Assembly: GCA_937974645.1 (NCBI GenBank) | Contig: CALJVH010000010.1 | Coordinates: 1,771 to 65,770, forward strand | Direction of reading: 5' to 3' | DNA from: an uncultured archaeon | Lineage (GTDB): Archaea; Thermoproteota; Nitrososphaeria_A; Caldarchaeales; Wolframiiraptoraceae | Length of the DNA stretch: 64,000 bases | Part shown: positions 18,468 through 45,073 of the stretch, one piece after another | Layout of the letters: each line of letters opens with the position of its first letter | Numbering within the stretch: the first letter of the stretch is position 1 | Position numbers and translations under genes: made by a program | Notes under the pieces: model-generated | The model's database searches: none | Told to the model about the DNA's origin: nothing | What the model saw: only the letters and a program-made list of their open reading frames with translations

Positions 18468-18561
18468 GCCACATCAACCCCCGATCCCTCATTACCCATG
18501 GTTTCAATCCTAAATTCTCCCTTGGGTGGAGCGTAAAAAAGCGCTATAAGACCGTGGCTAC

Positions 18562-20012: not shown

Positions 20013-20207
20013 GCCGTTTAGAATTTTTCAGCGACGATTGTTCTCTTATTCTACTCCCGGATCACCCTCATAGTGCCTCTCTGCTCTTTAAGTAATGTAG
20101 AGCCTCATGATTCTCCATTGTTATTCATCTTTATCTAAATCCATCCGGGAAGCTGCTGAGGGTTGCTGGAATACCGTTATAAGCGCCGAACATCACAATT
20201 CAATATC

Positions 20208-20615
20208 ATGGGGAGGATTATCAGGACGGGCGTCTCATTTCCCGAGGATCTTTTGAAGGCCTTTGACAAAATTATCAGAGATCTTGGGATAAGGTCTAGG
20301 TCCCAAGCGATTCAGGAGGCCGTGAGGGACTTCATTGCTATGAACTCTTGGAGGATTGCCGATGGGGAAGTAGCGGGCACGATCTTAGTCCGCTATTCGC
20401 ACGAAAAATACGGTATCGAGGAAAAGCTGACCGACGCGCAGCACGAATTTCTAAAATTAATACCATCAGCCCTTCACATTCATATTTCGAAGGAGGACTG
20501 CTTGCTCGTCATAGCCGTCAGGGGCATGGCCTCTGAGATCAAGGAACTTGTAAAGAAGCTTAGGGAGGCTGGCAGGGTAAAGCAGCTAACCTATGTGATG
20601 ATGCCCATTTGCTAG
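20208..20615 (+). CDS. nikR: Nickel-responsive transcriptional regulator NikR
   Basis: Ribbon-helix-helix N-terminus MGRIIRTGVSFPEDLLKAFDKII. C-terminal metal-binding region includes LHIHISKEDCLLV. The ATG at 20208 is preferred over the TTG at 20163. Confidence 0.85.
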   Translation: MGRIIRTGVSFPEDLLKAFDKIIRDLGIRSRSQAIQEAVRDFIAMNSWRIADGEVAGTILVRYSHEKYGIEEKLTDAQHEFLKLIPSALHIHISKEDCLLVIAVRGMASEIKELVKKLREAGRVKQLTYVMMPIC

Positions 20616-21341: not shown

Positions 21342-21656
21342 ATGTCCGCTACAGTTGAGGATGAGGAAATGAAGGCCTCAAATCCGTTCACGCCAGAAGA
21401 ATTAACGGAAAAAGTCATTGGGTTGAGCGAGAGGATAGCAAAGCTAGAGGCACTAATGGAGAGGTATGGAGAGACGCTCGCCGAGATCAAGGCTAGAGTA
21501 GGCAAGATCGAGGCAAAATTCGATGAAGATGAGGATGAATCGAATGAGATCAGGGCTATAACCGGAAGACTTGAGATCAAGCTCGACATATACTTCTGGC
21601 TATGGCTCGGAACAATCGCCGCTTGGATAATATTGAGGGTGATGAGGTTGATATAA
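21342..21656 (+). CDS. Small coiled-coil protein with C-terminal transmembrane helix
   Basis: Heptad-like acidic region, then YFWLWLGTIAAWIILRVM. Architecture reminiscent of DUF1640-type proteins, from uncertain recollection. Confidence 0.5.
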   Translation: MSATVEDEEMKASNPFTPEELTEKVIGLSERIAKLEALMERYGETLAEIKARVGKIEAKFDEDEDESNEIRAITGRLEIKLDIYFWLWLGTIAAWIILRVMRLI

Positions 21657-21887: not shown

Positions 21888-22121
21888 ATGTGCTATGCAA
21901 TCCCCGCCAAAGTCGTCGAAATCCGAGGAGATGTTGGAGTCGTAGACTTCGGTAATGGCGTTAGGAGGGAGGTTATCCTAGCAATGGTTGACGCTAAGGT
22001 AGGCGATTATGTACTAGTTCACGCAGGATACGCGATAAGGGTCTTGGATGGGGAGAGCGCTCTTGAGATGCTGCGTGCAATCGAGGAAGTCATCGGCCTA
22101 GCCGGGGAGGAGAGGAGCTAA
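21888..22121 (+). CDS. hypC: Hydrogenase assembly chaperone HypC/HupF
   Basis: MCYAIPAKVVEI... is the invariant N-terminal Cys2 HypC signature. 77 aa. Confidence 0.85.
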   Translation: MCYAIPAKVVEIRGDVGVVDFGNGVRREVILAMVDAKVGDYVLVHAGYAIRVLDGESALEMLRAIEEVIGLAGEERS

Positions 22122-23594
22122 AGTCCTTAGAAGGATGGTTAACGTTGTCGGGTATATTCCCAGTACCACTAATAGTATTGCTGAGACGATTATTGGCACT
22201 AACATGAGCCTCGGCTCCGGCTGGGCTCTTCTCACGGCCTCAGACTCCTCCCCGAATAAGCTTCTCCTTATCGTCCAGAGCCCGTATCCGGCTGTGATCA
22301 GCGAGAAGATTATTGCAATGATTGTTAGCGCGAGCCTCGGGATATCGAGGGAGGAGTGGAGTGCGGTGTATATTGAGCCAGCGAATATGAAGAGCTCCCC
22401 CCAGAATCCGAGGAGGGGTGGGTAGCCCATCAAGCTCAGGAAGCCTATCATGAAGGCTATGCTCATGGTCCGCATTCTACCAGCTAGGCCGCCGAGTTCA
22501 TCCAGATTATCGGTGCCGACGGTTCTCGAGAGCATTCCGGATATCATGAAGAGCATCGCCTTCGAGAGGCTGTGCGCCACATACATTAGCATGGCTCCAG
22601 CCAGCCCGATGACGGAGGCCGAGGCGACCCCGAACAGCATGTAGCCCATCTGGCTTATGCTCGAGTATGCTAGAAGCTTCTTCAGCCTATTCTGCGCGAG
22701 GGCCACGTAGCCGCCATAAATCATGGTTATCAGAGCGAGGGCGAGTAGCGCGATCATGAAGTCATTCTGTCCGATCATTTGCGGGAACGCTATGTAGAGT
22801 ATCCTGAGGGCCACGTAGCCGCCTATGCCTGTCACGACCGGGAGTATCGCGCTTATCGGCGTTGGCGCGGCCGAGTAGGCGTCTGGGAGCCAGGAATGGA
22901 GCGGAAAGATCGCCATCTTCACAAAGAGCCCTACGAGCATTAGCGAGGCTATTAGGGAGAGAGTGGTTGGGCTTAGGCCCGCGGCTCTAGAGGCGAGCTC
23001 GAGGATGTTCAGCGTCCCCATGATGGAATATGTTAGCCCTATGCCAACTAGGAACATCAGGGCTCCAGTCTCGGTATAGAGGAAGTACTTGAGAGCTGCG
23101 CGCCACCTATCCTTCTCGCCCCACACGACTATCAGGGACCACGACGCTATCAGTATAAGCTCGAGAAAGAGGAAGAAGCTCGCGAGGTTCGTAGAGAGCA
23201 CTGTTCCGAGCATGCCAGCGTTGAATAGAAGGTATAGGGAGAAGTATCCTCCCCATCCATCGCGGAGATCCATGTATGCGATCGAGTAAATGCATGCCAG
23301 CAGCCCAACCACCGCGGTCACCAAGGCGACAGGCCCGCTTAAACCATCAAGATAAAGGATGAAGTCCCCGAGAAGCTGGGCCCATGGATAGGATGCTTGG
23401 AGCGGCGAGCCGGACCTGTGGACAAAGTATCCAGCGACAACGAGGCATATCATGGAATAGGCCAGTGAGGTCAGTGCGATCCATCCAACTCTCTTTCCGA
23501 GCAACTTACCCATGGCAAAGATTATTGCCGATGCGATGATTGGCACGATCAGGGATTGGAGAAGTAGGTGGCTTGCATCAATCATTTTAGGCAC
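22098..23594 (-). CDS. Antiporter-like membrane subunit (NuoN/MrpD-like), last gene of the membrane-bound hydrogenase operon
   Basis: 498-aa polytopic protein of the NuoLMN/Mrp family (LAYSSISQMGYML, WLPDAYSAAPTPISA). Confidence 0.8.
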   Translation of the reverse strand: MPKMIDASHLLLQSLIVPIIASAIIFAMGKLLGKRVGWIALTSLAYSMICLVVAGYFVHRSGSPLQASYPWAQLLGDFILYLDGLSGPVALVTAVVGLLACIYSIAYMDLRDGWGGYFSLYLLFNAGMLGTVLSTNLASFFLFLELILIASWSLIVVWGEKDRWRAALKYFLYTETGALMFLVGIGLTYSIMGTLNILELASRAAGLSPTTLSLIASLMLVGLFVKMAIFPLHSWLPDAYSAAPTPISAILPVVTGIGGYVALRILYIAFPQMIGQNDFMIALLALALITMIYGGYVALAQNRLKKLLAYSSISQMGYMLFGVASASVIGLAGAMLMYVAHSLSKAMLFMISGMLSRTVGTDNLDELGGLAGRMRTMSIAFMIGFLSLMGYPPLLGFWGELFIFAGSIYTALHSSLDIPRLALTIIAIIFSLITAGYGLWTIRRSLFGEESEAVRRAQPEPRLMLVPIIVSAILLVVLGIYPTTLTILLRTLAPLLPG

Positions 23595-25587
23595 CTCCAG
23601 TTAGAATTAGCATTATGAGTATGAGGGCGCCGAGGATCAGCCCGATAACGTAGTGGTTTAATACGCCCGTATGTGCCTTTCTAATGAGGTCTGAGAATCT
23701 TCTCGCGCCGATCGACAGCGCATTGTTGATTCCTTCTATTACCTTTAACTCTAATACCTTAGAGGCTATTTGGCTGAGCCTTATCGAGGGATGTGCAATG
23801 GCCTTATAATAGAATGCATTGATGTAATATCTCCTGATGAGAAGCGTCCTGAGAGCCTTCATGTATCCGCGCCTCTCGACTATCTCACCCTGACCCTTCA
23901 CCCTCCTCACGTAGAGCGCGTACGCCGGAGCCGCTCCAATAACGATCGCGATGATTGATGCCAGTGGGACAATGAGCTGAGGGCCTAGTGCCCCGCTAGC
24001 TGAATGCGCGTGGACCGGGAGAATGCGCGCAAGGACCTTTTCGAGGCCGCCCTCGAGCAATGGGGCGACAAGCCCTAGAATAAGGCTGAGAACCGCCAAG
24101 ATTAGGTATGGTACCCACATGACTCTCGGTGCCTCATGCGCTTCCTCTGATTTTCCGCCACCGTAGAAGACTAGGCCCATCATCCTGATGCTGTAGAAGG
24201 CCGTTAAGATCGCGGTGACTAAGCCAAGTATGAAGGCGGCGTATTCTCCGGAGGATAGCGTCATGGAGAGGACTAGATCCTTGCTCCAGAATCCCCCAAA
24301 GGGCGGCATACCCATGAGCGCGAAGGCCGCGAGGAGCGTGCTATAGAATGTTATCGGCATGTGCTTCCGGAGCCCGCCCATATCCCTCAGGAATCTAGAC
24401 CCGGCCGCGTGAATTATGGAACCCGCGGCGAGGAATAGGGCCGCCTTGAAGACAGCATGGTTCATCAGGTGAAAGATCGAGGCGACATATCCGCCGATTA
24501 TCTCCGTCGAGAGACCTGCTGCCCCGAGAGCCATCATCATGTATCCTATCTGGCTGACTGTTGAGTAGGCTAGAATCTTCTTGAGCTCCGTGGAGGCAAC
24601 TGCTTGGCTCGCTGCGATGAAGGCCGTCAAGGCCCCGATCCACATGACAGCGTAGAAAAAGCTGGTGGTCGTGGGCACGCTCGCGCTCCAGCTGAGGGCA
24701 ATCGGGAAAAGTCTCGCGACGAGGTATACCCCTGCCTTGACCATCGTGGCGGCGTGGATCAGAGCGCTGACCGATGAGGGGCCTGCCATGGCGTCCGGAA
24801 GCCACTCCATCAGCGGGAGCTGAGCAGACTTCCCCACCGCGCCGCTGAGAATCAATATCAGGGAGATTGGAAGGAGCCACTTGAGATTCGCCGGGGCCAG
24901 CGAGTCGGCGTGTAAGAGCTCAGGAAAGCTCACGGTCTTAACGGTGGCGGCGAGCATCAGGGTTCCCGCGATCATGAATAGGTCTCCGAACCTAGTCACC
25001 ATGAATGCCTTCATTCCGCAGTGGGATGGTGGATATGCTTCCGGGGGCTCTCCAACCCAGTAATGTAGCCAGCCCTCTCTTGAATCTCGATACCAATAAC
25101 CTATGAGCGCGTAGCTGCAGAGGCCGACTCCCTCCCAGCCGACCAGCATGAGGATCAGATTATCCGCGAGCACTAGGAGGAGCATGTTCGCGATGAAGAA
25201 GTTCATGAAGAACCAATATCTAGTGAGGCCTGGGTCTCCGCGCATATAACCCAGTGAGTAGACCATGATTAGAAAGCTGACAACCGAGACTATATTGACC
25301 ATTATTATGCTGAGCGGATCCAAGAGCACCCCAGCTTTTATTTCTGAGAGAATCGGCGCGCCTGGCAGTAGCACCCACGAGATCTGGCTCCTCAGCGGCC
25401 ACTTAACTTCCTCAAACAACAGCGGTATCAGGCTCAGAGTCGTCAGCATCGCGAAAAACGAGAAGATCACAGCGCCATAGTCCCTCGCCCTCCCGCCGAT
25501 CCTAGCGAGCAATGGAGTCAATAATGCTCCGACCAGCGGCATCATCCAACTCGTCCAAGCATAAATCGCCCAGAGCTCGAGGCTCAT
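23587..25587 (-). CDS. Antiporter-like membrane subunit, NuoL/MrpA-like, with long C-terminal lateral-helix extension
   Basis: NuoL-type core (WEGVGLCSYALIGYW, LAYSTVSQIGYMM). About 130-aa C-terminal amphipathic segment ending in a terminal TM helix. The ATG at 25587 forms an ATGA overlap with the upstream gene. Confidence 0.8.
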   Translation of the reverse strand: MSLELWAIYAWTSWMMPLVGALLTPLLARIGGRARDYGAVIFSFFAMLTTLSLIPLLFEEVKWPLRSQISWVLLPGAPILSEIKAGVLLDPLSIIMVNIVSVVSFLIMVYSLGYMRGDPGLTRYWFFMNFFIANMLLLVLADNLILMLVGWEGVGLCSYALIGYWYRDSREGWLHYWVGEPPEAYPPSHCGMKAFMVTRFGDLFMIAGTLMLAATVKTVSFPELLHADSLAPANLKWLLPISLILILSGAVGKSAQLPLMEWLPDAMAGPSSVSALIHAATMVKAGVYLVARLFPIALSWSASVPTTTSFFYAVMWIGALTAFIAASQAVASTELKKILAYSTVSQIGYMMMALGAAGLSTEIIGGYVASIFHLMNHAVFKAALFLAAGSIIHAAGSRFLRDMGGLRKHMPITFYSTLLAAFALMGMPPFGGFWSKDLVLSMTLSSGEYAAFILGLVTAILTAFYSIRMMGLVFYGGGKSEEAHEAPRVMWVPYLILAVLSLILGLVAPLLEGGLEKVLARILPVHAHSASGALGPQLIVPLASIIAIVIGAAPAYALYVRRVKGQGEIVERRGYMKALRTLLIRRYYINAFYYKAIAHPSIRLSQIASKVLELKVIEGINNALSIGARRFSDLIRKAHTGVLNHYVIGLILGALILIMLILTGGA

Positions 25588-27155
25588 CCCAAGATCACCT
25601 CCAAGGCTGATCGTATGAATTGAAGAACTGGGTTCAACATAATCGTGACCAGTATGCAAGCGGCTGCGAGGATTACTAAGGGCGCAAGCATGAGTGCAGG
25701 CGCCTCCCCAGCCTCCTCATACTTCTCATTTGATCCCGCTTTCTTGAAGGCAAGTCTCTGGAAGAGCCAGAGGTAGTAACCCGCTGCTAGGATGCTGTTC
25801 AGGATGAAGATTATGGATGCCGCGAGCATCAGGTTGTCCGAGGGAATTCCAAGGCTTGCCGAGATTATGAAGAGCTTGCTCCAGAATCCGCTTAGCGGCG
25901 GGACCCCGGCGAGGTTCAGCAGCCCGACCCCGAGGGATGCCGTCGTGATGGGCATTCTCGATCCGATCCCCTCGAGCTTCTCAACCTCTCTAGACCCCAC
26001 CCTGACTATGTAGCATCCGACTGAGAGGAATGAGAGTCCCTTCCCGAGCGCGTGGTTGAGTACATGGAGCAATGCCCCAGTCAGTGCGAGGGCGGCTAAC
26101 CCAATCTCTGATGGATGTGTTTTGAGGACGTGGGCGGCCAGCCCTATGCCCGTGATTATGTAGCCTATATTAGCTATGCTCGAGTATGCTAGGAATCTCT
26201 TGACGTCCGACTGCATCACGGCGCCGATGTTCGCGAATGTCATAGTTAGGATACCTAAGCCGATCAGGATCGGGCCAAAACCATATGCCAAGGGGCTGAA
26301 TATCTTGAACAGGGGCCAGAGAATCGCATAGACGCCAGTCTTGATTACAATCCCGGATAGGACCGCGCTTATCGGCGTCGGCGCGGCCGGGTGGGCGTCT
26401 GGGAGCCAAGAATGGAATGGCACGATCGCGGCAGTCACACCAAAGCCTATCAGGATCATCATAAGGGATAGTGTGGCCGCCATGTTGCCGCCGCCGAAGA
26501 CCGCGGCCCTTACAGCGTCGAATCGGAGCGATCCGGCAAGCCCGTAGAGGAGAGCTATCCCAAGGAGGGCGACGAGTGATCCGAGGGTGCTCATTATGAG
26601 GTACTTGAAGCCCGCCTCAACAGCCTCCCAAGACCATTTCCTGAAGGCGACGAGCGAGTATGAGGAAATGGCCATGAGCTCCCAGAAGACGTAGAGCGTG
26701 AAGAAGTCGTTCGCGATCGTGACGCCGATCATCCCAGCGATCAGGGTCAGGAGGAGGGCATAGTACCTGTCGAGGCCCAGTTCCCTCCGCCTGATCCAAA
26801 GGAGGTCGTCGGTTGGCAGATGCTCGACGTCGAACAGCATGTATCTCGTCGAGTAGATTGATGCCACTAAGCCGAGGCCGGAGAAGATCATTGAGAAGTA
26901 AATGCTCAGCATGTCGAGCTTGAGTGAGGCTGTTAGGGGCGAGTCAGGACCCCATACAATCGTTCGAGGGATCACGGCCCCGGCAACCGCTTCAAGCGAT
27001 AGGAAGATTAGCGTGGAGAGGAACGCTAAGCTTGCGACTATGCCTCCGAACTCTATGAGCCCAACTCTTCTGAAGACCGGATCTAGGATCACGGTGATTA
27101 TCGCGGCTCCAACTAGGATGAGGATCAAATTGAGGGGATCCGCAATCATCACCAC
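25584..27155 (-). CDS. Antiporter-like membrane subunit (NuoM/MrpD-like)
   Basis: 523-aa polytopic protein (WLPDAHPAAPTPISA, LAYSSIANIGYII). Confidence 0.8.
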   Translation of the reverse strand: MVMIADPLNLILILVGAAIITVILDPVFRRVGLIEFGGIVASLAFLSTLIFLSLEAVAGAVIPRTIVWGPDSPLTASLKLDMLSIYFSMIFSGLGLVASIYSTRYMLFDVEHLPTDDLLWIRRRELGLDRYYALLLTLIAGMIGVTIANDFFTLYVFWELMAISSYSLVAFRKWSWEAVEAGFKYLIMSTLGSLVALLGIALLYGLAGSLRFDAVRAAVFGGGNMAATLSLMMILIGFGVTAAIVPFHSWLPDAHPAAPTPISAVLSGIVIKTGVYAILWPLFKIFSPLAYGFGPILIGLGILTMTFANIGAVMQSDVKRFLAYSSIANIGYIITGIGLAAHVLKTHPSEIGLAALALTGALLHVLNHALGKGLSFLSVGCYIVRVGSREVEKLEGIGSRMPITTASLGVGLLNLAGVPPLSGFWSKLFIISASLGIPSDNLMLAASIIFILNSILAAGYYLWLFQRLAFKKAGSNEKYEEAGEAPALMLAPLVILAAACILVTIMLNPVLQFIRSALEVILG

Positions 27156-27469
27156 CTCAACCTCCTAAGCTTCCTAACGTCAAATGTTCCGTAATGCCTG
27201 TAGATGTTTAGTGCTATGGACAACGCTAGCGCGGTGATTGCCGCGGCCACCGCTGTCGAAATCGCGATCATGCTCTGGGCTAGGGCGTCCATCATGACAA
27301 CGTCATCCACGATCCTTATACCCATCGAGGCTATCGCGAGGTTCACGCCGAGAGTCACGGCCTCCAATCCAATCACCACTCTGACGAGATGCCTCTTGGA
27401 CGCGATTATATAGAGCCCGACGACGATCAGGAGCAACGACCCCCCGAAGTAGATCTCGTAAAGGCTCAT
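27149..27469 (-). CDS. NuoK/MbhG-like small membrane subunit
   Basis: MSLYEIYFGGSLLLIVVGLYIIASKRHLVRVVIGLEAVTLGVNLA is NuoK-like. The internal ATG at 27469 is preceded by GGTGAGGAG. Confidence 0.7.
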   Translation of the reverse strand: MSLYEIYFGGSLLLIVVGLYIIASKRHLVRVVIGLEAVTLGVNLAIASMGIRIVDDVVMMDALAQSMIAISTAVAAAITALALSIALNIYRHYGTFDVRKLRRLRW

Positions 27470-27489
27470 TCTCTCCTCACCACCGAGAT

Positions 27490-27732
27490 CTACCATTCCC
27501 TCCTGAGCTGGGCGGAGACTGCCGCGATGACTGCGAAGAGTATGAATGCTTGGATTAGGAGGTCGAGCCATCTGTTAGCCCAGAGGAACTGAGGGGTCTC
27601 CTCAATGCTCGTCGGCTCGAGGCTCGGCGCCTTGATGCTCTGAACTATTCTTGGCGAGTATGCTAGGAGCGTTACCGCAAGAATCATCGTCAGTATCACG
27701 GCAGTCATTCTCGTGGCCTCCATTCTAGTCAC
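27490..27732 (-). CDS. Small two-TM subunit, candidate C-terminal half of a split NuoJ (MbhE-like)
   Basis: Two hydrophobic helices separated by a polar loop. The position between the NuoJ-N-like and NuoK-like genes supports the call. Confidence 0.5.
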   Translation of the reverse strand: MTRMEATRMTAVILTMILAVTLLAYSPRIVQSIKAPSLEPTSIEETPQFLWANRWLDLLIQAFILFAVIAAVSAQLRREW

Positions 27733-27967
27733 CTCTCTCCTCCCCGGCGTGTATCGTTGCTAGAAGGAGTATTGTGACCGCGCCCGCATAGATTAGTAGC
27801 TGGAAGGCACTGAGGTATGGCGCTCCCAAGAGGTAGAATATGGCGGCCACAGCGATGTTCGCACACATTAATGCAAGTATCGCCTTCATCACGTCCTTCA
27901 GCTCCGCGGCTAGGATCGTGAAGACGAGCGTGAGTATTATCATGGCGATGTGTATGGCGGCCTCCAT
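27725..27967 (-). CDS. NuoJ N-terminal-half-like subunit (MbhD-like)
   Basis: Three TM helices. LGAPYLSAFQLLIYAGAVTILLL resembles the NuoJ TM3 motif (Q..VY.GA..VL). Confidence 0.6.
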   Translation of the reverse strand: MEAAIHIAMIILTLVFTILAAELKDVMKAILALMCANIAVAAIFYLLGAPYLSAFQLLIYAGAVTILLLATIHAGEERGD

Positions 27968-28317
27968 TATCTCACCACCAGATCCTCCTTTCTGAGAGCA
28001 ATGTTCTCAAAAGTCTTGCTCATGCTTATCGCCTTGGTTGGACAGACCTCGGCGCACTGGGCGCAGTATATGCACTTGTAAATGTAGAAGATAGGCCTCT
28101 TGCCCTTCTCATCCTCGATCATTTCGATCGCCCTGGCGGGGCAGACCCTGAAGCAGAGCTGGCATCCAATGCATTTCGCTCGATCGAACTCTATCCTACC
28201 CCTGAACCCCTCGGGGAGATGGATTTTATCGAGCTCCCTGTATGGGTAGAGTATCGTGGCCCTTCTCCTGAACAGGCTTCTCAAGGCCTCTGCCAAAAGG
28301 CGTCCAGGAATTCTCAT
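27967..28317 (-). CDS. NuoI/MbhN-like 2x[4Fe-4S] ferredoxin subunit
   Basis: [12 protein letters not shown] and [12 protein letters not shown]. The ATG at 28317 lies 2 nt after the NuoH-like stop. Confidence 0.85.
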
Positions 28318-28319
28318 CC

Positions 28320-29285
28320 CTAAACGATCACCTCCGTCAGGATCATGAGTATCATGGCCGGAGGCATGAGATACCTCCAAGAGAAGGAGACCATCTGATC
28401 TATCCTTAGCCTCGCGAATAATGCTCTAATCAAGGTGAAGATTGCGAGAACAATTATAGATTTCAGGAGGAAGTAGATCACGTATAGAATCGGCTCGAGC
28501 CCCGGAATTACTGGACCCAGGGGGCCTCCGAGGAATATGGCAGCGCCGAGGCCAGAGAGGAGGAAGAGTTCGAGGTCCTTTGAGAGCCTAAATAACGCGA
28601 GCCTCCTGCCGCCGTATTCGACCTCCCATCCGGAGACTATCTCCTGCTCGGCCTCCGGTATGTCAAATGGTATCTTCTCCATCTCTGCCTGCGATGCTAT
28701 GACAAAGATCATGAAGCCTATCAGCTGGATGCCGGCGATGAGCCAGAGGCCCTTCTCGGCCTGAACCTCAACTATTCCCCGAATGCTCAGTGAGCCGGCG
28801 GCTACTGCGGCACTTAGCAGGCTGAGCGTCAACGGTATCTCATAGCCTATTAGCTGGAGAGATGCTCTCACCGCGCCTATCGAGGCAAACCTATTATTCG
28901 AGCCCTCGCCAGCGAGATACACTGTTATTGTGTAAAGTGATAGAAGCGCGATCACGACTATCAGATCTCCCTCGAACGAGAGCACCCCGGATGGCCCGGC
29001 TATCGGCAGAAACATGCAAGCGAAAAGCATCAGGGCTGGAGCGAGCATCGGCGTCAGCGTGAAGAGGAGTCTGTCCGCAGCCATTGGTACAATGTCCTCC
29101 TTGGAGAGGAGCTTGATGAGGTCGGCGATGGGTTGGAAGAGCCCAAAGGGACCCGTGAGATGCGGGCCAATTCTATTTTGGAACCTAGCATATAGCTTCC
29201 GGTCGATCCACTCGTAAAAGAGCGAGACCGCCAGCACGAAGATTACTCCTGGGAAGAATATTGTAGCAAGTATCATCTCGATCAT
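28320..29285 (-). CDS. NuoH/HycD/MbhM-like membrane subunit
   Basis: 321-aa polytopic protein with a NuoH-like N-terminus ([31 protein letters not shown]). Confidence 0.8.
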
Positions 29286-30475
29286 CTCTTCTCAACCCTC
29301 CTCTCACGCGAGAGCCTTATGATGTCATCAAGCGTCATGGTCATCCGCCTTCTCCTCGCCTCGTCGGTGATCACGATCCTCGCGCTACAGCATATGCATG
29401 GATCTATTCCGCCGAGGATCGCTGGGACATCGGCTATATAGACTTCGTAATCGCCCCTGCTTCTCAGCATCTCCGTGACTGAGAGGAGGTTCGCGAGGGT
29501 CGGCGTCCTGACTCTATACCTGTATGGTTTCTCCCCGCCATCCGAGATCGAGTAGTGCACAAGCTCACCTCTCGGCGCCTCAACCCTCGCCAAAGACTCA
29601 CCCGGAGGAGTCTTGAAGAATGACGGTATCTTCAACCTATAGTCGCCGGATGGTATGTGGTCGAGGGCGTAGCGAATCATGTTCACGCACTCGTAGACCT
29701 CCCTAACCCTGACCTTTATCCTAGCATAGCAGTCGCACGTATCCCAAGTGACTACATTGAACGGGACCTCGTCGTGGCCGCTGTACGGATCATCAAGCCT
29801 GATATCATGCTTTATTCTCGACGCTCTCAGGTGCGGGCCGACCGCGCCCATCTTCACAGCGTCTTCGGGCTTAAGTATTCCCACTCCTTGGGTTCTCGCG
29901 AGGATCGTCGGCTCAGAGTCTATCACTTTCTCATAGTAGCGCATCCTCTCCTCGATGTAATCCAGCGCCCTCCTTAGATTCTGCTCAGCCTCGGGCGCTA
30001 GATCTCTCCTTACACCGCCTATCGTGTTGTAGGATGTGATGACCCTGTTTCCCGTGATGAGCTCAAGCATGTCCATGACCCTTTCCCTATCTCTCCAGAA
30101 GTACATGAAGAGGGTCTCGAATCCTAGCGTGTGGAAATAGTGGCCGAGCCAGAGGAGGTGGCTGTGAATCCTGCTAAGCTCCTCCACTATGATTCTGAGG
30201 TACTTCGCTCTAGGAGGAGCCTCCTTGCCGAGAAGCTGCTCGATATTGAGGCAGTAGCAGAGTGAGTGAGCGGCATTACATATTCCGCATATTCTCTCCA
30301 CAAGGTAGAGCCCCTGAATATACGGCCTCGTCTCCAGAGCCTTCTCGATGCCCTTGTGAATGTAGCTGACGTCCACATCAACATCAACTATGAGCTCACC
30401 CTCAACTGTCAGCCTAAGCATGAGGGGCTCAACATGTATCGGGTGCTGGGGACCTATTGGGATCTCGAAGCTCAT
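29282..30475 (-). CDS. Group 4 [NiFe] hydrogenase large subunit at the NuoD position
   Basis: ERICGICNAAH (Cys63, Cys66) and DPCICCSAR (Cys360, Cys363), followed by a 31-aa C-terminal tail. 4-nt overlaps with NuoC-like and NuoH-like genes. Confidence 0.9.
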   Translation of the reverse strand: MSFEIPIGPQHPIHVEPLMLRLTVEGELIVDVDVDVSYIHKGIEKALETRPYIQGLYLVERICGICNAAHSLCYCLNIEQLLGKEAPPRAKYLRIIVEELSRIHSHLLWLGHYFHTLGFETLFMYFWRDRERVMDMLELITGNRVITSYNTIGGVRRDLAPEAEQNLRRALDYIEERMRYYEKVIDSEPTILARTQGVGILKPEDAVKMGAVGPHLRASRIKHDIRLDDPYSGHDEVPFNVVTWDTCDCYARIKVRVREVYECVNMIRYALDHIPSGDYRLKIPSFFKTPPGESLARVEAPRGELVHYSISDGGEKPYRYRVRTPTLANLLSVTEMLRSRGDYEVYIADVPAILGGIDPCICCSARIVITDEARRRRMTMTLDDIIRLSRERRVEKR

Positions 30476-30981
30476 CCATTTTCACCTCTTTCACCTCCTC
30501 TAAGCGGTTTGGGCTGCTCTGGCGCGTAATCCTTTCTTAGCGGGTGGACTCCCTCTGGCCAATCTTCGGGCAAGAAGAGCCTCTTGAGATTTGGATGACC
30601 ACCGAATACGATGCCCAGCAGGTCGTGTGTCTCCCGCTCATAGAAGCTCGCGGCTGGAAGAATATCGGTTATCGAGTCTATGATCGGGCTATCTTTTGGA
30701 ACATGCGTCTTAATGAGTACGCATGTCGAGTATCCTAAGTGAGCCACGATCTCTAGGTTATCTCCCCGGTCCACTCCGCTCAGGCAGCTAAGGAACTCCA
30801 GCCCGAGATCCTGTGCGACATATCTCACGACATCCTTGTAAGCGTCGGTGGAAACTAGAACCGAGATTCGCCTCTTCCCGAGAGCCTTCGCCTCGAGCAC
30901 TTTCTCGCCAAACTTCTCGGATATCTTCCTAAGAAGTTCCTCCTCGCTCAACCTAGACCTCCCCCCTCTCAATCTTCTCAA
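30472..30981 (-). CDS. NuoC/MbhK-like subunit
   Basis: 30-kDa-subunit-like sequence (ERETHDLLGIVFGGHPNLKRLFLPEDWPEGVHPLRKDY). The start may be the in-frame TTG just after the NuoB-like stop. Confidence 0.8.
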   Translation of the reverse strand: MRRLRGGRSRLSEEELLRKISEKFGEKVLEAKALGKRRISVLVSTDAYKDVVRYVAQDLGLEFLSCLSGVDRGDNLEIVAHLGYSTCVLIKTHVPKDSPIIDSITDILPAASFYERETHDLLGIVFGGHPNLKRLFLPEDWPEGVHPLRKDYAPEQPKPLRGGERGENG

Positions 30982-31393
30982 CCAATATGCTGATCGCCTT
31001 CAGGATGGCCTCCGGCTTAACTGGGCAGCCCGAGACATACGCGTGAACAGGTATAATAGAGTCGAGGCTCGGATACGTGTTATAGCATCCCCAGTATACC
31101 CCGCCGCTCGTCGCGCAGGTTCCAGCAGCAACCACGTACTTCGGCTCCGGCATCTGCTCATATATCCTAATGAGCCTATCCCTCGCCTGCCGGGTAACCG
31201 GACCCGTCACGACTAGAATATCTGCGTGCCTTGGGCTCCCCCGGGCGAGAACTCCAAACCTCTCAACATCATAGCGCGGGGTTAAGCATGCGGCTATCTC
31301 GAGATCACATGCATTGCATGCTCCGGTGTCAAATAGGAGTATCCACGGGCTTCTCGCTCTGCATTTCCTTACCAGCTTCTCAGCAATACCCAT
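30953..31393 (-). CDS. Hydrogenase small subunit at the NuoB position (MbhJ/HycG-like)
   Basis: Cluster ligands GACNACDLE, GTCATSGG and SGCPVKPE. The first motif is the hydrogenase-type CxxC rather than the complex I tandem CC. Confidence 0.85.
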   Translation of the reverse strand: MGIAEKLVRKCRARSPWILLFDTGACNACDLEIAACLTPRYDVERFGVLARGSPRHADILVVTGPVTRQARDRLIRIYEQMPEPKYVVAAGTCATSGGVYWGCYNTYPSLDSIIPVHAYVSGCPVKPEAILKAISILVEKIERGEV

Positions 31394-31399
31394 CCACGC

Positions 31400-31729
31400 T
31401 CATCTCCTTCTCCCAAGTAGCTGGATCGCGATCCCTAGCACGAGACCATAAATGATGAGGAGGCTGATGATGCCGGGCTTATATGCTGGCGGAACATTTA
31501 TCGTGAATGCCAAGAAGAGCGCGATAACATCGAACACCATGAATAGTGCGGCGAAATTGAAGAGCAACAATCTTATCGGACTCCTAGCTGGGGGGAAGCT
31601 CTCCCCACAGGCATAGGGCTCAAGCTTCATCTTGCTCTTAGGAGCCTTAACAGATAACCTTCCACCCAGAAGGTAGATGAAGAGTATTGTGAGAAACGTT
31701 ACGATAAGCGCAGTAACGAGCTCTTCCAT
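31400..31729 (-). CDS. NuoA-like small membrane subunit
   Basis: Three TM helices with PYACGESFP and FMVFDVIALFLAF, resembling the NuoA YECG and FDVE regions. First gene of the operon. Confidence 0.6.
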   Translation of the reverse strand: MEELVTALIVTFLTILFIYLLGGRLSVKAPKSKMKLEPYACGESFPPARSPIRLLLFNFAALFMVFDVIALFLAFTINVPPAYKPGIISLLIIYGLVLGIAIQLLGRRR

Positions 31730-31806
31730 GAAAGATCAACACTACAATCTGGTAACTCAAATTTAAGTTTGGTCTCCGCATGTGCAGAATCTGTAACACA
31801 GTAATA

Positions 31807-32298
31807 TCACAGCCTCATCAAGAGGCTTAATAAGAAGCTCGTAACCACCTCCTCCGCCGCCCTAACTGCGGGGCTTATGCCTCTTCCAAATTCTAAGGTT
31901 TCCACCTGTATTCCTAAGACATATGCTGGCACGCTTATCTCTGAGAGCTTCATGATTAAATCTAGCGGCATTCCATGCGTTGAGATTGTCTTTCCTGACG
32001 CTTCCTCTAACTTCATAAGCCTAATTTCTCCGGATCTGCCACCGAAATCCGCGGCATCAAAGAATATAATGGCCCCAGGGGCCATGGGCTTCAGCATTCT
32101 TGGAATCAGGTCAACCCTATCCTCCACAATAACCACTTTTATCTTCTCATTTTTCAGGAGCCGCTTTAGAGTTTTCGCGAGCTCGACTCCTACGCCATCA
32201 TCTCCTCGAAGCGGATTGCCAACGCCGACTAGCACTAAGTCTCCACCCCTCATCAACAAATCATCAATGATCTGCTTGAGCTCCTTCCTCCAGTTCAT
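31807..32298 (-). CDS. [NiFe] hydrogenase maturation endopeptidase (HycI-like) for the membrane-bound enzyme
   Basis: LVLVGVGNPLRGDDGVGVELAKTL. Directly upstream of the 12-gene operon on the same strand. Confidence 0.8.
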   Translation of the reverse strand: MNWRKELKQIIDDLLMRGGDLVLVGVGNPLRGDDGVGVELAKTLKRLLKNEKIKVVIVEDRVDLIPRMLKPMAPGAIIFFDAADFGGRSGEIRLMKLEEASGKTISTHGMPLDLIMKLSEISVPAYVLGIQVETLEFGRGISPAVRAAEEVVTSFLLSLLMRL

Positions 32299-32375
32299 AT
32301 CAGGGCCAGTAATATCGTGGAAAAACCGAGGTTAAACCTTTATTATCGTTGCGCCGGGATCCACACGACCGTGTG

Positions 32376-33560
32376 ATGGGAGGTATGGATTCCGCCGATC
32401 TGATGAAGAAAATTCTCTCAAGGTACAGGGATTCGGCGCTGGCGAGAAGCCTAGTTAATAAGATCTGGGAGGTTGCCAGAGATCTTCCGAGAGTTAGGAT
32501 AATGCACGTATGCGGGACCCATGAATGGACCATAACCCACTGGGGCATTAGGGCCCTTCTTCCGGATAATGTTGAGGTTAGGGCTGGTCCCGGATGTCCG
32601 GTCTGTATAACCCCAGCATCCGATATAGATGTGGCTGTCAAGCTCGCGCTCGATGGGATTAATGTCCTCACATATGGCGATATGTCGAGAGCGAAGGGCT
32701 CTAGAATGATCTCACTCGAAGACTGCGCCGTTGATGGCGGCAAGGTTAGAATAGCATATAGCTTCATGGACGCAGTGAAGATCGCTAGCAATAACCCGGA
32801 TAGAGAATACATCTTTCTCGGGGCGGGATTCGAGACAACAGCACCTACAGTAGCATACTACGTCCTGAAAGGTCTTCCAAGAAATCTTAAGATCCTCTCA
32901 GCCCACAGATATGTTCCGCCAGCAGTTGGATCTCTAGCGGAATCCGAAGATCTCGAAATAGACGGCTTCATAAATCCGGGGCATGCCTCGACCGTGAGCG
33001 GGATGAAAGCATATAAGCCGTATTTTGATAGGTGTGGGAGGCCAATGGTTTTCGCTGGCTTCGAGCCAATAGACGTTTTGATGGCGATCTACATGATCCT
33101 TAAGCAGTTGAAAGAACGAGCCCCAAGAATGGAGAATGAGTACGTGAGGTCTGTGACGTGGGAAGGGAATCTGAGAGCGCAACAAGCACTTCAAGAAGTC
33201 TTCGACTTCGAGGAGGGCTACTGGAGGGGAGTCGCGATCATACCGGCGAGCGCGATGAACTTTAAAGAAAAGTTTTCGCAAGTTGATGCTAGGAGAATTT
33301 ACGGCCTAGAGTATGGGAGGGGAGACTACTTTCCATCAGAAGCCAGATGCGCTGAGATAATAAAGGGGATTATTGACCCGCCCGACTGCCCTCTCTACAT
33401 GAAGATATGCACGCCCTTAACACCGGTCGGTCCAGCAATGGTCGGACTTGAAGGAACATGCAGGATCTGGGCGCAGAACAGGATCCTCGTCAAGGACATT
33501 AAGTGCATGAGCGGCGCATGTGGAATAAGCCGGGAGGCGAAGCCCGTGAAAAGATCGTGA
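32376..33560 (+). CDS. hypD: Hydrogenase maturation protein HypD
   Basis: MHVCGTHEW and GPGCPVCITP motifs. The ATG at 32376 is preferred over the TTG at 32349. Confidence 0.9.
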   Translation: MGGMDSADLMKKILSRYRDSALARSLVNKIWEVARDLPRVRIMHVCGTHEWTITHWGIRALLPDNVEVRAGPGCPVCITPASDIDVAVKLALDGINVLTYGDMSRAKGSRMISLEDCAVDGGKVRIAYSFMDAVKIASNNPDREYIFLGAGFETTAPTVAYYVLKGLPRNLKILSAHRYVPPAVGSLAESEDLEIDGFINPGHASTVSGMKAYKPYFDRCGRPMVFAGFEPIDVLMAIYMILKQLKERAPRMENEYVRSVTWEGNLRAQQALQEVFDFEEGYWRGVAIIPASAMNFKEKFSQVDARRIYGLEYGRGDYFPSEARCAEIIKGIIDPPDCPLYMKICTPLTPVGPAMVGLEGTCRIWAQNRILVKDIKCMSGACGISREAKPVKRS

Positions 33561-33581
33561 AGAAGGGAGCGGATTCCATTA

Positions 33582-34646: not shown

Positions 34647-34943
34647 GCATTAAAGCAGTAATTCAGCGCGTAACGAGCATCTCGCATAGCATCCTCGAAC
34701 CATGCGCGCAACCATTCGGGCATAGCTGTAAGATTAGCGCCTGTTGCCGGGAAGCCGCTGAAGGAATCTTCTAGCGATAATTTTAGCCACTATCTTCTCC
34801 TAGGAAGCGGTGTAATTGAGTCGGCTTAGATTGATGCACAACATAACAGGTAAGAATGAACGTGACTGACAATTTATATTGTGGATGGCTGCGGGAAAAT
34901 TCATATTTCGGAAACCCGGTCTAGTGTTCTCAGATCGGCTTCC

Positions 34944-45071: not shown

Positions 45072-45073
45072 AC

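Follow-up and report, generated by a model that had tools for sequence, protein, structure and literature searches.

Organization of the Locus

The ORF map of the window (the whole 64,000-nucleotide stretch of DNA that was analyzed) places a hydrogenase operon of 13 abutting or overlapping genes on the minus strand, from 32298 to 22098. These encode a HycI protease, NuoA-, NuoB- and NuoC-like subunits, a large subunit, NuoH- and NuoI-like subunits, a split NuoJ, a NuoK-like subunit and three antiporter-like subunits, and each lies where an earlier note on this DNA had put it. With families assigned by Pfam and NCBIfam profiles, the genes are as follows:

31807-32298, minus: HycI-type maturation endopeptidase for the large subunit (PF01750, E 3.9e-09)
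31400-31729, minus: NuoA-like membrane subunit, 109 aa, about 3 TM helices (PF00507, 28.6 bits against a cut-off of 23.3)
30953-31393, minus: hydrogenase small subunit (NuoB-like) with a CxxC...C...C cluster motif (PF01058, E 2.3e-30)
30472-30981 (maximal ORF), minus: NuoC/HycE-N-like 30-kDa subunit (PF00329, E 7.3e-33)
29282-30475, minus: [NiFe] large subunit, 397 aa (PF00346, E 9e-70; PF00374, E 4e-12)
28320-29285, minus: NuoH/HycD-like membrane anchor (PF00146, E 1.2e-92)
27967-28380, minus: NuoI-like 2x[4Fe-4S] subunit, presumed ferredoxin entry point (Fer4 families)
27725-27967, minus: N-terminal half of NuoJ (= MbhD), 80 aa (PF00499, E 9e-10; PF13244 (MbhD), E 2.7e-05)
27490-27732, minus: C-terminal half of NuoJ (= MbhE), 80 aa (alignment to unsplit NuoJ)
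27149-27571, minus: NuoK/MrpC-like subunit (PF00420, E 3.6e-18)
25584-27155, minus: first antiporter-like subunit, NuoN position, HyfB/MrpD-like (PF00361, E 8.7e-60)
23587-25587, minus: NuoL-type subunit with lateral helix HL and terminal TM helix (TIGR01974, 507 bits against a cut-off of 407.5)
22098-23594, minus: NuoM-type subunit, about 495 aa (TIGR01972, 303.6 bits against a cut-off of 263.8)

Junctions between these genes range from -29 to +23 nt, except for 77 nt after hycI, and all of the ORFs are intact and closely spaced. The C and D subunits are encoded by separate, unfused genes. Three antiporter genes had been predicted downstream of the NuoK-like gene and are present; their order, however, is N-like, L, M and not L, M, N. 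Three start sites probably lie inside the maximal ORFs: about 13 codons downstream for the NuoC-like subunit (its orthologues are 151-156 aa long), at the ATG at 28317 for the NuoI-like subunit (116 aa) and at the ATG at 27469 for the NuoK-like subunit (about 106 aa). Judged from its sequence, the operon is genuine and intact and encodes a membrane-bound [NiFe] hydrogenase built from the eleven core subunits of complex I.

Maturation and regulatory genes flank the operon on both sides:

20163-20615, plus: NikR nickel-responsive regulator (PF08753, PF01402)
21888-22121, plus: HypC maturation chaperone (PF01455, E 1.1e-24), convergent with the operon
32349-33560, plus: HypD (PF01924, E 7e-123)
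33582-34646, plus: HypE (AIRS and AIRS_C domains)
34881-37268, plus: HypF (HypF domain set)

The hypDEF block (32349-37268) is divergent from hycI; the annotated ORFs of the window include neither HypA nor HypB. The endopeptidase that had been noticed directly upstream is indeed of HycI type, matching TIGR00072 (95 bits, above the cut-off) and TIGR00142 (hycI, E 2e-23) in addition to PF01750. Its gene occupies the same position in the orthologous loci L084, L086 and L087, and the NikR gene also adjoins the hydrogenase operon in L084 and L086.

Large Subunit and Redox Module

The large subunit carries the following features of a [NiFe] site:

30289-30278, minus: L1 cysteines C63 and C66 (ERICGICNAAH)
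29398-29387, minus: L2 cysteines C360 and C363 (DPCICCSAR)
29380-29378, minus: processing arginine R366
29377-29285, minus: removable 31-aa C-terminal tail after R366

The four cysteines share alignment columns with C241, C244, C531 and C534 of Escherichia coli HycE, R366 aligns with HycE R537, and all five residues are invariant in the 80 related loci aligned (80/80). The retention of both Ni-Fe motifs in the NuoD-position protein is thereby confirmed column for column, as is the removable-looking tail, which is HycE-like. In addition, E16 aligns with HycE E193, the conserved proton-relay glutamate; the Ni-Fe ligands, the arginine and this glutamate also line up with MbhL, and the glutamate too is invariant in the 80 relatives. 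By sequence, the subunit has a complete Ni-Fe site and a tail that would be cut after Arg366 by the HycI-type protease.

A different reading would make this a quinone- or other acceptor-reducing complex I of Nuo/Fpo type, or a decaying relic, in which the cysteines are incidental. Public annotations name the subunits as NADH-quinone oxidoreductase subunits D and L, and the NCBIfam NuoD profile scores 343 bits on the large subunit, slightly below its cut-off of 360. However, conservation across 80 loci extends to the cysteines, arginine and tail as well as to the protease and Hyp genes. The ORFs of the operon are neither broken nor loosely spaced, and where NuoD has its quinone ligands (H224 and Y273 in E. 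coli NuoCD), this protein has Val15 and Gly64. True cysteine-less NuoD proteins of the TACK archaea, by contrast, stop at the arginine without a tail and are partnered by a CC-type NuoB. In a neighbor-joining tree, the Ni-free NuoD clade has 100% bootstrap support and every Cys-bearing sequence, including the present one with its correctly aligned cysteines, falls outside it. This reading is extremely improbable, and the sequence already contradicts it. As far as sequence can test it, the catalytic competence proposed in the earlier note is supported by the cysteines, protease, tail, Hyp genes and missing quinone ligands.

The other subunits of the redox module agree with a hydrogenase. The small-subunit motif GACNACDLE resembles GGCNGCEIE of HycG and the corresponding motif of HyfI and differs from SCCYVEM (CC) of NuoB, so that the hydrogenase-type CNAC seen earlier in place of CC holds up in the alignment. 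NuoI, HyfH and HycF profiles match the NuoI-like subunit at E 1e-24 to 1e-29. The NuoH-like anchor keeps the acidic chain, with equivalents of E. coli NuoH R37, D63, E71, R148, E157 and D213, and also those of E216, E218, E220, E228, K274 and R293. The NuoA-like subunit gave no significant BLAST match to NuoA of the cysteine-less TACK Nuo clusters.

The best solved relatives of the large subunit are HycE (280 bits), MbhL (250 bits) and Nqo4 (244 bits). The first rank of HycE could point to a hydrogenlyase of the FHL-2/Hyf or Coo kind, coupled to formate or CO and with its input module encoded elsewhere, and the residue patterns of HyfB/HycC, HyfD and HyfF recur in the three antiporter-like subunits. 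However, identity to HycE is only 39%, C and D are unfused, and genes for FdhF, HycB, HyfA, CooS and CooF occur neither in or near the operon nor in the orthologous loci L084 and L086. More generally, the annotated genes of the window include no input module (NuoEFG, FpoF, FdhF, HycB, CooS or CooF). Such a coupling is very unlikely.

Membrane Arm

A complete complex I membrane arm had been proposed, and all eleven core subunits, a genuine NuoL included, are present. The split of NuoJ stands on two kinds of evidence: the N-terminal half is matched by NCBIfam NuoJ profiles as well as by Pfam, whereas the second piece (27732-27490) has zero Pfam or NCBIfam matches and is assigned solely by alignment: it pairs with the C-terminal halves of E. 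coli NuoJ and of the unsplit NuoJ homologues (158-200 aa) of related loci. This piece is positionally conserved in five loci (L001, L003, L007, L084 and L086). The NuoK-like label is borne out by PF00420, but NuoK is not the best-scoring family, as the MrpC-type PRK08388 scores higher among the NCBIfam profiles. E70 corresponds to E. coli NuoK E36, and Ile stands at the position equivalent to E72.

PF00361 occurs in three subunits of the operon. The first of them (about 521-523 aa) scores 307 bits with HyfB and 293 bits with MrpD, every NCBIfam score being under its cut-off, and has a TM5 Glu, a Thr replacing the TM7 Lys, a TM8 Lys and a TM12 Lys. Counted from the ATG at 25587, the NuoL-type subunit is 666 aa long (its maximal ORF, of 690 aa, reaches 25659); it keeps E. 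coli NuoL E144, K229, H254, K342 and K399, and is spanned by TIGR01974 over its full length. Its AlphaFold (AF2) model (pLDDT 80, pTM 0.82) shows two TM helices, at 539-560 and 643-665, on either side of an amphipathic stretch (566-641), and the top Foldseek matches are NuoL, NdhF and ND5, aligned end to end over 660-700 columns with target TM-scores of 0.81-0.84. The amphipathic extension and terminal TM helix inferred earlier are therefore upheld by profile, model and Foldseek, and this distal subunit is a true NuoL, with a lateral helix able to clamp the row of antiporter-like subunits. The NuoM-type subunit has the TM5 Glu, TM7 Lys and TM12 Glu of NuoM, with Gly in place of the TM8 Lys.

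A canonical lysine is thus missing from two of the three antiporter-like subunits, and together with the loss of the second NuoK Glu this means that not every module need pump. These Lys and Glu substitutions are also found in cysteine-less TACK Nuo arms. The three antiporter-like subunits of cysteine-less TACK complex I are 45-54% identical to their counterparts in the window and 61-70% identical to those in a related hydrogenase locus; the corresponding figure for the redox module is 33-46%.

The orthologue in Wolframiiraptor was labeled a 10-subunit Mbh-Mrp complex (Buessecker et al., 2022; PMC9246946), which would make the present enzyme a sodium-translocating hydrogenase of Mbh-Mrp (group 4d-like) type. 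NuoJ is split like MbhD and MbhE, with PF13244 matching the N-terminal half, and MrpC and MrpD/HyfB profiles give the top scores for the NuoK-like and first antiporter-like subunits. However, the two further antiporter-like subunits exceed the NuoL and NuoM cut-offs, the L subunit bears the long lateral helix of complex I, and the large subunit is no nearer to MbhL (38%) than to HycE (39%). The absence of MrpE/F/G/B-like (MbhA-C,F-like) genes, as claimed earlier, is confirmed for both the operon and the other membrane ORFs of the window. Assignment to this type is very improbable.

Classification and Distribution

An Fpo-like 11-subunit hydrogenase was named Hfo and corresponds to HydDB subgroup 4g, in which no enzyme has been characterized (Loh et al., 2021; PMC7886697). 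Orthologues were noted in Aigarchaeota (Hua et al., 2018; PMC6053391) and in Wolframiiraptor (PMC9246946), and Asgard versions were modeled in 2024 (PMC11291895; bioRxiv 10.1101/2024.07.04.601786). The orthologue of these two studies comes from the same lineage as the present DNA and is 79% identical. A Wolframiiraptor MAG and hot-spring metagenomes contain this 13-gene cluster at 79-89% identity, and the same subunit composition is found in many TACK, Asgard and bacterial genomes. The operon is therefore a further member of a type described from genomes between 2018 and 2024, and its kind is not new. It does not belong to a well-characterized subgroup, as Hfo (4g) has been described and remains biochemically uncharacterized.

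Proposed Function

The operon probably encodes a dedicated protease and a 12-subunit, membrane-bound [NiFe] hydrogenase of group 4, of the complex I-like Hfo type, that would pass electrons from ferredoxin to protons and pump ions. The enzyme itself is most likely an ion-pumping ferredoxin:H+ oxidoreductase, with ferredoxin as the presumed donor and pumping as the presumed output. The NuoI-like subunit, with its two clusters, would accept electrons from reduced ferredoxin, which could come, for example, from the aldehyde:ferredoxin oxidoreductase (AOR) encoded with a polyferredoxin at 54163-56342 of the window. From these clusters the electrons would pass via the small-subunit cluster to the Ni-Fe site, where protons would be reduced to H2. 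Redox and protonation changes may start where the large, small and NuoH-like subunits meet, and the signal would then travel through the NuoH acidic chain and the NuoK Glu into the three antiporter-like subunits, along their Lys/Glu chain. The three subunits would expel H+ (the assumed ion), and the gradient would drive ATP synthase. The reaction should be reversible, and a cytosolic group 3b-like hydrogenase encoded adjacent to the operon could recover H2 as NAD(P)H.

The free energy of the ferredoxin-to-H2 step is small relative to four putative channels, which fits reverse operation equally well. In the forward direction, this low energy implies either an ion-to-electron ratio well below that of complex I or work at low H2 pressure only. 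The same enzyme might run the opposite way, with the membrane potential driving the uphill reduction of ferredoxin by H2, as Eha, Ehb and Ech are known to do in methanogens. With up to four ion paths, a long arm would, on thermodynamic grounds, give a high ion-to-electron ratio and suit reverse electron flow better, and the second, cytosolic hydrogenase next to the operon is compatible with it. Pyrodictium delaneyi carries a relative, and reverse flow was argued for the homologous Hfo of acetogenic Bathyarchaeia (Loh et al., 2021; PMC7886697). However, W. gerlachensis, the closest relative that has been studied, is a sugar fermenter in which the orthologue was inferred to be a ferredoxin-dependent, H2-evolving proton pump (PMC9246946) and proposed as the principal path for re-oxidizing ferredoxin; its MAG yielded no rnf genes. 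The annotated genes of the window include the ferredoxin-reducing AOR and none for CO2 fixation. Moreover, group 4 enzymes are generally reversible, so that direction may depend on conditions and not denote a distinct mechanism. We consider this opposite direction rather unlikely, and H2 evolution from ferredoxin is the preferred reading.

Comparison with Known Systems

The earlier note held that characterized group 4 hydrogenases have fewer antiporter-like subunits or use Mrp modules; this overlooks Hyf (FHL-2), which has three (PMC13645896) and whose residue patterns, as HyfB/HycC, HyfD and HyfF, are mirrored here. It also called the complex an architectural intermediate between energy-converting hydrogenases and complex I. 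A hydrogenase with a complex I arm is indeed present, but we prefer to describe it as a modular mosaic because cysteine-less TACK complex I shares the antiporter-like subunits but not the redox module; the three subunits behave as a cassette common to both. Compared with E. coli HycE, the large subunit has the same Cys columns, processing Arg and tail, and in contrast to complex I NuoD it lacks both the quinone-binding His and Tyr. The split NuoJ corresponds to MbhD/MbhE of Mbh, whose MbhABCF subunits are lacking here.

Organization of the Operon

The earlier note described a [NiFe] hydrogenase built on a complex I-type gene order, and profile searches bear out the observation on which this rests: 13 tightly packed, co-directional genes with complex I-type assignments occupy positions 22098-32298 of the minus strand. 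Junctions between genes lie within -29 to +23 nt, except for a 77-nt gap after the first gene. In operon order, the genes are as follows.

Genes of the operon (22098-32298, minus strand)
Gene 1: HycI-type endopeptidase
Gene 2: NuoA-like
Gene 3: NuoB-like small subunit
Gene 4: NuoC-like
Gene 5: 29282-30475, minus strand, 397-aa large subunit (NuoD-like)
Gene 6: NuoH-like
Gene 7: NuoI-like, with two 4Fe-4S motifs
Gene 8: 80-aa N-terminal half of NuoJ (J1), which also matches MbhD
Gene 9: 80-aa protein without a family match (J2)
Gene 10: 27149-27469, minus strand, NuoK-like
Gene 11: 25584-27155, minus strand, antiporter-like protein (PF00361), N-like
Gene 12: 23587-25587, minus strand, antiporter-like protein (PF00361), L
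Gene 13: 22098-23594, minus strand, antiporter-like protein (PF00361), M

The large subunit matches both the 49-kDa and the Ni-dependent hydrogenase families, J1 matches PF13244, and the NuoH-like anchor (PF00146, E 1e-92) is encoded in one operon with the three PF00361 proteins, as expected of a group 4 (energy-converting) [NiFe] hydrogenase. Unsplit NuoJ homologues align in their C-terminal half with the 80-aa protein without a family match, so NuoJ is split into two genes. All eleven core subunits of Nuo/Fpo (A, B, C, D, H, I, J, K, L, M, and N) are found in one cluster, from which NuoEFG and FpoFO are absent. The order J1, J2, K, N-like, L, M matches that of cysteine-less TACK Nuo clusters, that is, complex I clusters whose D subunit lacks the Ni-Fe CxxC motifs, and not that of Fpo or E. 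coli nuo. A decaying or misassembled locus is ruled out by the intact ORFs and by the same order in independent assemblies.

Mrp-type small subunits had been described as missing from the operon, and this holds, as every operon gene is assigned and none is MrpE/F/G/B-like. Screening of ORFs with two or more hydrophobic segments, which covered the 64-kb window of the genome, revealed no MrpE/F/G/B-like (MbhA, B, C, F) genes in either the operon or the window; the membrane ORFs outside the operon comprise ABC permeases, EamA, PHO4, and single ORFs without an assignment, and they do not form an Mrp cluster. No input module (NuoEFG, FpoF, FdhF, CooS, or Hdr) is found among the approximately 63 annotated ORFs of the window.

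The Catalytic Module

As judged from its sequence, the catalytic module is a hydrogenase with a complete Ni-Fe site, a maturation system, and a hydrogenase-type electron path, and not a quinone reductase. Compared with solved structures, the large subunit scores highest against E. coli HycE (280 bits), followed by P. furiosus MbhL (250 bits) and T. thermophilus Nqo4 (244 bits). It was aligned with E. coli HycE, HyfG, and NuoCD and with 80 relatives, which are the best 80 of at least 582 loci. All four of the Ni-Fe cysteines pointed out in the earlier note prove to be correctly aligned, with C63, C66, C360, and C363 corresponding to HycE C241, C244, C531, and C534, and they also align with the cysteines of MbhL. 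R366 aligns with HycE R537, behind which HycE is known to be processed, and is followed by the 31-aa C-terminal tail that had been described as removable-looking; this tail aligns with that of HycE. The four cysteines and R366 are invariant in all 80 relatives (best 80 of at least 582 loci), and Glu16, which aligns with HycE E193, is kept in 79 of them, the remaining one being gapped at that column. At the quinone-ligand positions, H224 and Y273 of E. coli NuoCD, the large subunit has Val15 and Gly64.

The small subunit likewise has the hydrogenase-type CNAC motif attributed to it, as in HycG and HyfI, at the site where NuoB has the tandem CC motif of cluster N2. Its CxxC...C...C motif for a single proximal 4Fe-4S cluster, GACNAC...GTCATSGG...SGCPVKP, aligns with HycG and HyfI, and the first site reads SCC in E. 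coli NuoB, GCC in both of the TACK Nuo clusters compared, and CNAC in the window. Besides the HycI-type endopeptidase, maturation genes and the NikR gene lie adjacent to the operon:

Just downstream of the operon: HypC and NikR
Upstream of the operon, divergent: HypD, HypE, and HypF

HypA and HypB were not found among the annotated ORFs of the window.

In a crude neighbor-joining tree of large subunits (Kimura distances, bootstraps), the bacterial and TACK NuoD proteins group together with 100% bootstrap support, to the exclusion of all cysteine-bearing sequences, so that the large subunit of the window falls outside the Ni-free clade. The references in this tree are HycE, HyfG, MbhL, Nqo4, E. 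coli NuoD, and two TACK NuoD proteins, without Ech, Coo, Fpo, Mbs, Eha, or Ehb, and with such a set it cannot tell which hydrogenase subgroup is sister to complex I.

The Membrane Arm

The arm was expected to be of the complex I type with three antiporter-like subunits, and indeed all eleven core subunits are found, including a full-length NuoL. The 666-aa protein (ATG at 25587) passes the NuoL model TIGR01974 along its entire length, with 507 bits against a cut-off of 407.5, and it keeps the equivalents of E. coli NuoL E144, K229, H254, K342, and K399. The NuoL-type lateral helix and terminal transmembrane segment ascribed to it are reproduced in an AlphaFold (AF2) model (pLDDT 80, pTM 0.82), in which a transmembrane segment at 539-560 is followed by an amphipathic 75-residue stretch at 566-641 and a last transmembrane segment at 643-665. 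Hydropathy and helical-moment profiles also bear out the lateral helix HL and the terminal TM16, and in Foldseek comparisons NuoL, NdhF, and ND5 chains match the model over its whole length.

The last operon gene passes the NuoM cut-off, and its product has the NuoM-type TM12 Glu. The first antiporter-like protein stays under all cut-offs, its nearest profiles being HyfB and MrpD, and the NuoK-like subunit is nearest to MrpC profiles. The acidic chain of NuoH is kept in the NuoH-like subunit. Three canonical charged residues are missing from the arm and are consistently absent in the closest relatives: the TM7 Lys of the first antiporter-like subunit is Thr (Leu in HycC), the TM8 Lys of the NuoM-like subunit is Gly (Asn in HyfF), and the second Glu of the NuoK-like subunit is Ile. 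Because the arms of cysteine-less TACK Nuo also have both the TM7 Thr and the TM8 Gly, these two are traits of the arm type and not of the hydrogenase.

Antiporter-Like Subunits Shared With Cysteine-Less Complex I

The closest non-hydrogenase relatives of the window NuoL belong to two cysteine-less TACK Nuo clusters, one in a Nitrososphaerales MAG (L088) and one in Hecatella orcuttiae (L089). Arm blocks were compared between the window (22098-27155), these two clusters (L088:8457-13658 and L089:8467-13603), and L007 (L007:13051-18512), a Bathyarchaeial hydrogenase locus with full Ni-Fe motifs.

Amino acid identity (%) of arm subunits (N-like, L, M) and of D, B, and H
Window vs. two TACK Nuo: N-like 45-48; L 53; M 51-54; D 39-41; B 42-43; H 37-41
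L007 vs. Hecatella Nuo: N-like 65; L 70; M 66; D 39; B 45; H 36
Hecatella vs. Nitrososphaerales Nuo: N-like 61; L 62; M 63; D 60; B 76; H 54

Between a related hydrogenase locus and cysteine-less Nuo, the antiporter-like subunits are 61-70% identical, as opposed to 33-46% for the redox module. Neighbor-joining trees built from the antiporter-like subunits place the Nuo arm proteins, with 90-100% support, inside a clade formed by the window, Wolframiiraptor, L007, and L003, a further locus of the same composition. The L007 cluster is colinear, with genes abutting across the break in similarity. An assembly chimera is for this reason judged an unlikely source of the L007 mosaic, which is seen on one MAG contig.

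The simplest reading of these distance trees, two Nuo clusters, and one MAG contig would be that a hydrogenase and a quinone-type complex have exchanged the block of N-like, L, and M. In its more general form, N-like, L, and M would constitute an exchangeable TACK cassette, swapped at least once between Ni-Fe hydrogenase and quinone-type, cysteine-less complex I redox modules, a proposal that we put forward tentatively and rate at somewhat less than an even chance. If it is true, this hydrogenase clade would represent the closest extant partner, or the donor, of the membrane arm of archaeal complex I, proton reduction would be able to drive a genuine complex I pumping arm, and a concrete recombination step in complex I assembly would be dated. 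We found no statement of such an exchange in the papers that we consulted, and the sharp contrast in identity between the arm subunits and the redox module is what the window may add to existing knowledge.

Distribution and Relatives

A scan of species-representative genomes yielded at least 582 loci with relatives, and the window proteins were mapped on the best 80 of them. Within these best 80 of at least 582 loci, the same composition and order recur in four loci (L001, L003, L007, and L027, from Nitrososphaeria, Thermofilaceae, and Bathyarchaeia), a version divided between two operons is present in two (L016 and L019), and rearranged versions are present in Asgard archaea and Thermoplasmata-like archaea. 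The same best 80 include bacterial versions with two or three antiporter-like subunits from Aminicenantes, Omnitrophota, Elusimicrobia, and Anaerolineae, the cultured Leptolinea tardivitalis being among the bacterial carriers; three antiporter-like genes adjoin the large subunit in 24 of the 80. An identical 13-gene cluster with HypC and NikR adjacent is found on contigs from a Wolframiiraptor sp. MAG and hot-spring metagenomes, with large subunits that are 79% and 89% identical.

The labels of the nearest database proteins disagree for both the large subunit and L. A 99%-identical fragment (MBS7621916.1) is labeled Candidatus Bathyarchaeota, and full-length relatives at 77-84% identity are labeled Aigarchaeota, Nitrososphaerota, Thaumarchaeota, or Wolframiiraptor. 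The L protein has a 100%-identical database protein, P0121.

Other Genes in the Window

Further genes in the window are as follows.

15097-19701, minus strand: second hydrogenase cluster, directly downstream of the operon
4672-8022 and 12112-14583: two ABC uptake systems
21342-21656, plus strand: 104-aa ORF between NikR and HypC
43565-46348: peroxiredoxin, ferritin/rubrerythrin-like protein, and flavodiiron-type protein (beta-lactamase fold and flavodoxin)
54163-56342: 135-aa polyferredoxin and aldehyde:ferredoxin oxidoreductase (AOR)
56381-59578, strand opposite to the AOR genes: FAD-linked oxidase with EtfA and EtfB
62974-63060, minus strand: tRNA-Phe(GAA), the only tRNA in the window

The second hydrogenase cluster encodes beta (Fer4_22) and gamma (NAD-binding) subunits, small and large subunits (the latter of 431 aa), and a maturation protease of its own. 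It matches sulfhydrogenase Shy and Hyd subunits best, with scores under the equivalog cut-offs, and is accordingly a group 3b-like cytosolic NAD(P)-linked hydrogenase. In L084, the locus of the Wolframiiraptor sp. MAG, and in the orthologous locus L086, the stretch from NikR to the ABC transporter lacks this cluster and contains an FmdE-like gene only; the cluster may therefore be an insertion in the window.

One of the two ABC systems, a PBP_like_2, permease, and ATPase set adjoining a PBP_like-domain protein, is possibly for tungstate or molybdate. The other, a ZnuA, ABC_tran, and ABC-3 set, may serve nickel supply, because in relatives it lies beside NikR, the FmdE-like gene, and the hydrogenase operon. 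The 104-aa ORF is charged, with a hydrophobic C-terminal segment (by eye), and has a weak, sub-threshold DUF1664 match alone; no gene is called at its place in L086, and it may not be a real gene. The FAD-linked oxidase/EtfA/EtfB set may be an electron-bifurcating dehydrogenase, and the genes at 43565-46348 are an oxygen-defense set typical of anaerobes. The tRNA spans 87 nt against a 71-position model, which suggests an intron or insertion.

Proposed Function and Significance

The Ni-Fe site, the maturation genes, and the complex I-type arm together support the interpretation offered in the earlier note, namely a catalytically competent, presumably ferredoxin-driven, ion-pumping hydrogenase. 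Ferredoxin would be the electron donor, since no other input module lies nearby, AOR and polyferredoxin are encoded in the window, and a relative is a fermenter. Protons would be reduced to H2 at the Ni-Fe site, and NuoH and NuoK would couple this reaction to the three antiporter-like subunits, which would export H+. The transfer of electrons from ferredoxin to H2 releases little energy, so that either the ion-to-electron ratio would be lower than that of complex I or the enzyme would depend on low H2.

The main alternative is reverse operation, in which H2 and the membrane potential would drive ferredoxin reduction, as proposed by Loh et al. for Hfo, an Fpo-like [NiFe] hydrogenase (PMC7886697). 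As the main role here, this appears unlikely, and a forward, H2-evolving pump is probably the main physiological role of the complex.

The origin of complex I from membrane hydrogenases is a long-standing question, and natural test objects for it are enzymes in which a functional Ni-Fe site occurs together with all of the complex I subunits. None of them has been purified or solved, and our full-text literature search found no structure of this hydrogenase type. The window contributes a complete and well-preserved representative, from a thermophilic TACK archaeon, and this kind of enzyme is experimentally reachable because laboratory cultures exist of a close relative, Wolframiiraptor gerlachensis (Buessecker et al., 2022; PMC9246946). 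The driving reaction of the enzyme releases far less energy than does that from NADH to quinone, and the ion-to-electron ratio would reveal how many of the four ion paths of the complex I type this reaction can drive. The direction of operation and the structure of the enzyme would be likewise informative.

Comparison With Known Systems

This hydrogenase type has already been described from genomes (2018-2024), including its architecture and evolutionary reading, and the operon is not new as a discovery. In Aigarchaeota bins, Hua et al. (2018; PMC6053391) found a near-complete nuo set in which mrpC and mrpD replace nuoK and nuoN, reported a CXXC motif in NuoD, and proposed a hydrogenase of group 4. 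Buessecker et al. (2022; PMC9246946) described in W. gerlachensis an "Mbh-Mrp" complex that is ferredoxin-dependent and proton-translocating, has conserved cysteine pairs, and is fed by tungsten-dependent oxidoreductases. The orthologue that these two studies named Nuo with mrpC/mrpD or Mbh-Mrp, without dissecting its membrane arm, shows no difference in kind from the window operon. The Wolframiiraptor sp. MAG locus is a direct orthologue, with the identical 13-gene order, HypC and NikR adjacent, and subunit identities of 61-88% (79% for the large subunit).

Loh, Herve and Brune (2021; PMC7886697) gave the name "Hfo" to a Bathyarchaeial [NiFe] hydrogenase with 11 Fpo-like subunits, assigned by HydDB to subgroup 4g, with similar clusters in Ca. 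Methanomethylicus and Pyrodictium delaneyi; it lacks MbhABCF and was said to close the gap between hydrogenases and complex I, and no subgroup 4g enzyme had been characterized. Like the window operon, Hfo has the same eleven Nuo/Fpo core subunits without a NuoEFG or FpoFO module, keeps the L1 and L2 Ni-Fe motifs in its D subunit, has no MbhABCF sodium module, and is predicted from genomes only (PMC7886697). A Methanomethylicus homologue is 56% identical to the window large subunit. Three Bathyarchaeial loci (L040, L041, and L053), with large subunits 47-48% identical to that of the window, have a fused CD, an unsplit J, and the order K, L, M, N-like, whereas in the window C and D are separate, NuoJ is split, and K is followed by N-like, L, and M. 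Relatives from Korarchaeia, Culexarchaeia, and Bathyarchaeota have been reported as 4g, the Korarchaeial ones with NuoLM-like subunits. Subgroup 4g as a whole is polyphyletic, and its members cluster loosely.

Complex I-like group 4 [NiFe] hydrogenases of Asgard archaea share with the window a Ni-Fe-competent NuoD, Nuo-like membrane subunits, and an L-like subunit with a lateral helix, and they have been modeled as ferredoxin-driven, H2-evolving pumps resembling complex I (Valentin-Alvarado et al., 2024, PMC11291895; Appler et al., 2024, bioRxiv 10.1101/2024.07.04.601786). Their hosts belong to a different phylum, and their large subunits (L011, L022, and L030) are 50-54% identical to that of the window. 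Heimdallarchaeial arms are shorter than that of complex I (Appler et al., 2024), whereas the window has all three antiporter-like subunits.

The Mbh of P. furiosus (group 4d; PDB 6CFW) resembles the window operon in its ferredoxin-driven, H2-evolving hydrogenase module (predicted in the window), NuoH-like anchor, NuoJ split as MbhD and MbhE, MrpC-like MbhG, and MrpD-like MbhH, and the large subunits are 38% identical (250 bits). Mbh differs in having a sodium module (MbhA, B, C, and F), and its single antiporter-like subunit carries a short lateral helix; in the window, NuoL- and NuoM-type subunits are added and the sodium module is absent.

The earlier note held that characterized group 4 hydrogenases have fewer antiporter-like subunits or use Mrp-type modules, and the first part of this needs qualification, as the genetically studied Hyf (formate hydrogenlyase-2, group 4a; E. 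coli and Pectobacterium atrosepticum) has three (PMC13645896). As in the window, these are accompanied by a NuoK-like protein, and there are parallels in the residue patterns of the three subunits: the TM7 Lys is missing from HycC, the NuoL-type set is found in HyfD, and HyfF combines a TM12 Glu with the absence of the TM8 Lys. Unlike the window operon, Hyf receives electrons from formate dehydrogenase via HyfA, has a fused C-D large subunit, and has no NuoA or NuoJ genes and, by gene size, no NuoL-length subunit; identities are 30-39%. No formate dehydrogenase or HyfA/HycB input genes are found in the window or the orthologous loci.

Finally, the two cysteine-less TACK Nuo clusters, L088 and L089, have the same subunit set as the window, with a split NuoJ and the J1-J2-K-N-like-L-M order. 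No protease gene is called within the 22-kb stretches around them, and, unlike the window large subunit, their D subunit lacks both CxxC motifs and the tail, ending at Arg, and their B subunit has CC. Complex I at large (Nuo, Nqo, Fpo, and NDH-1) also differs from the window operon in its NuoD, which is devoid of the Ni-Fe cysteines and carries the quinone His and Tyr.
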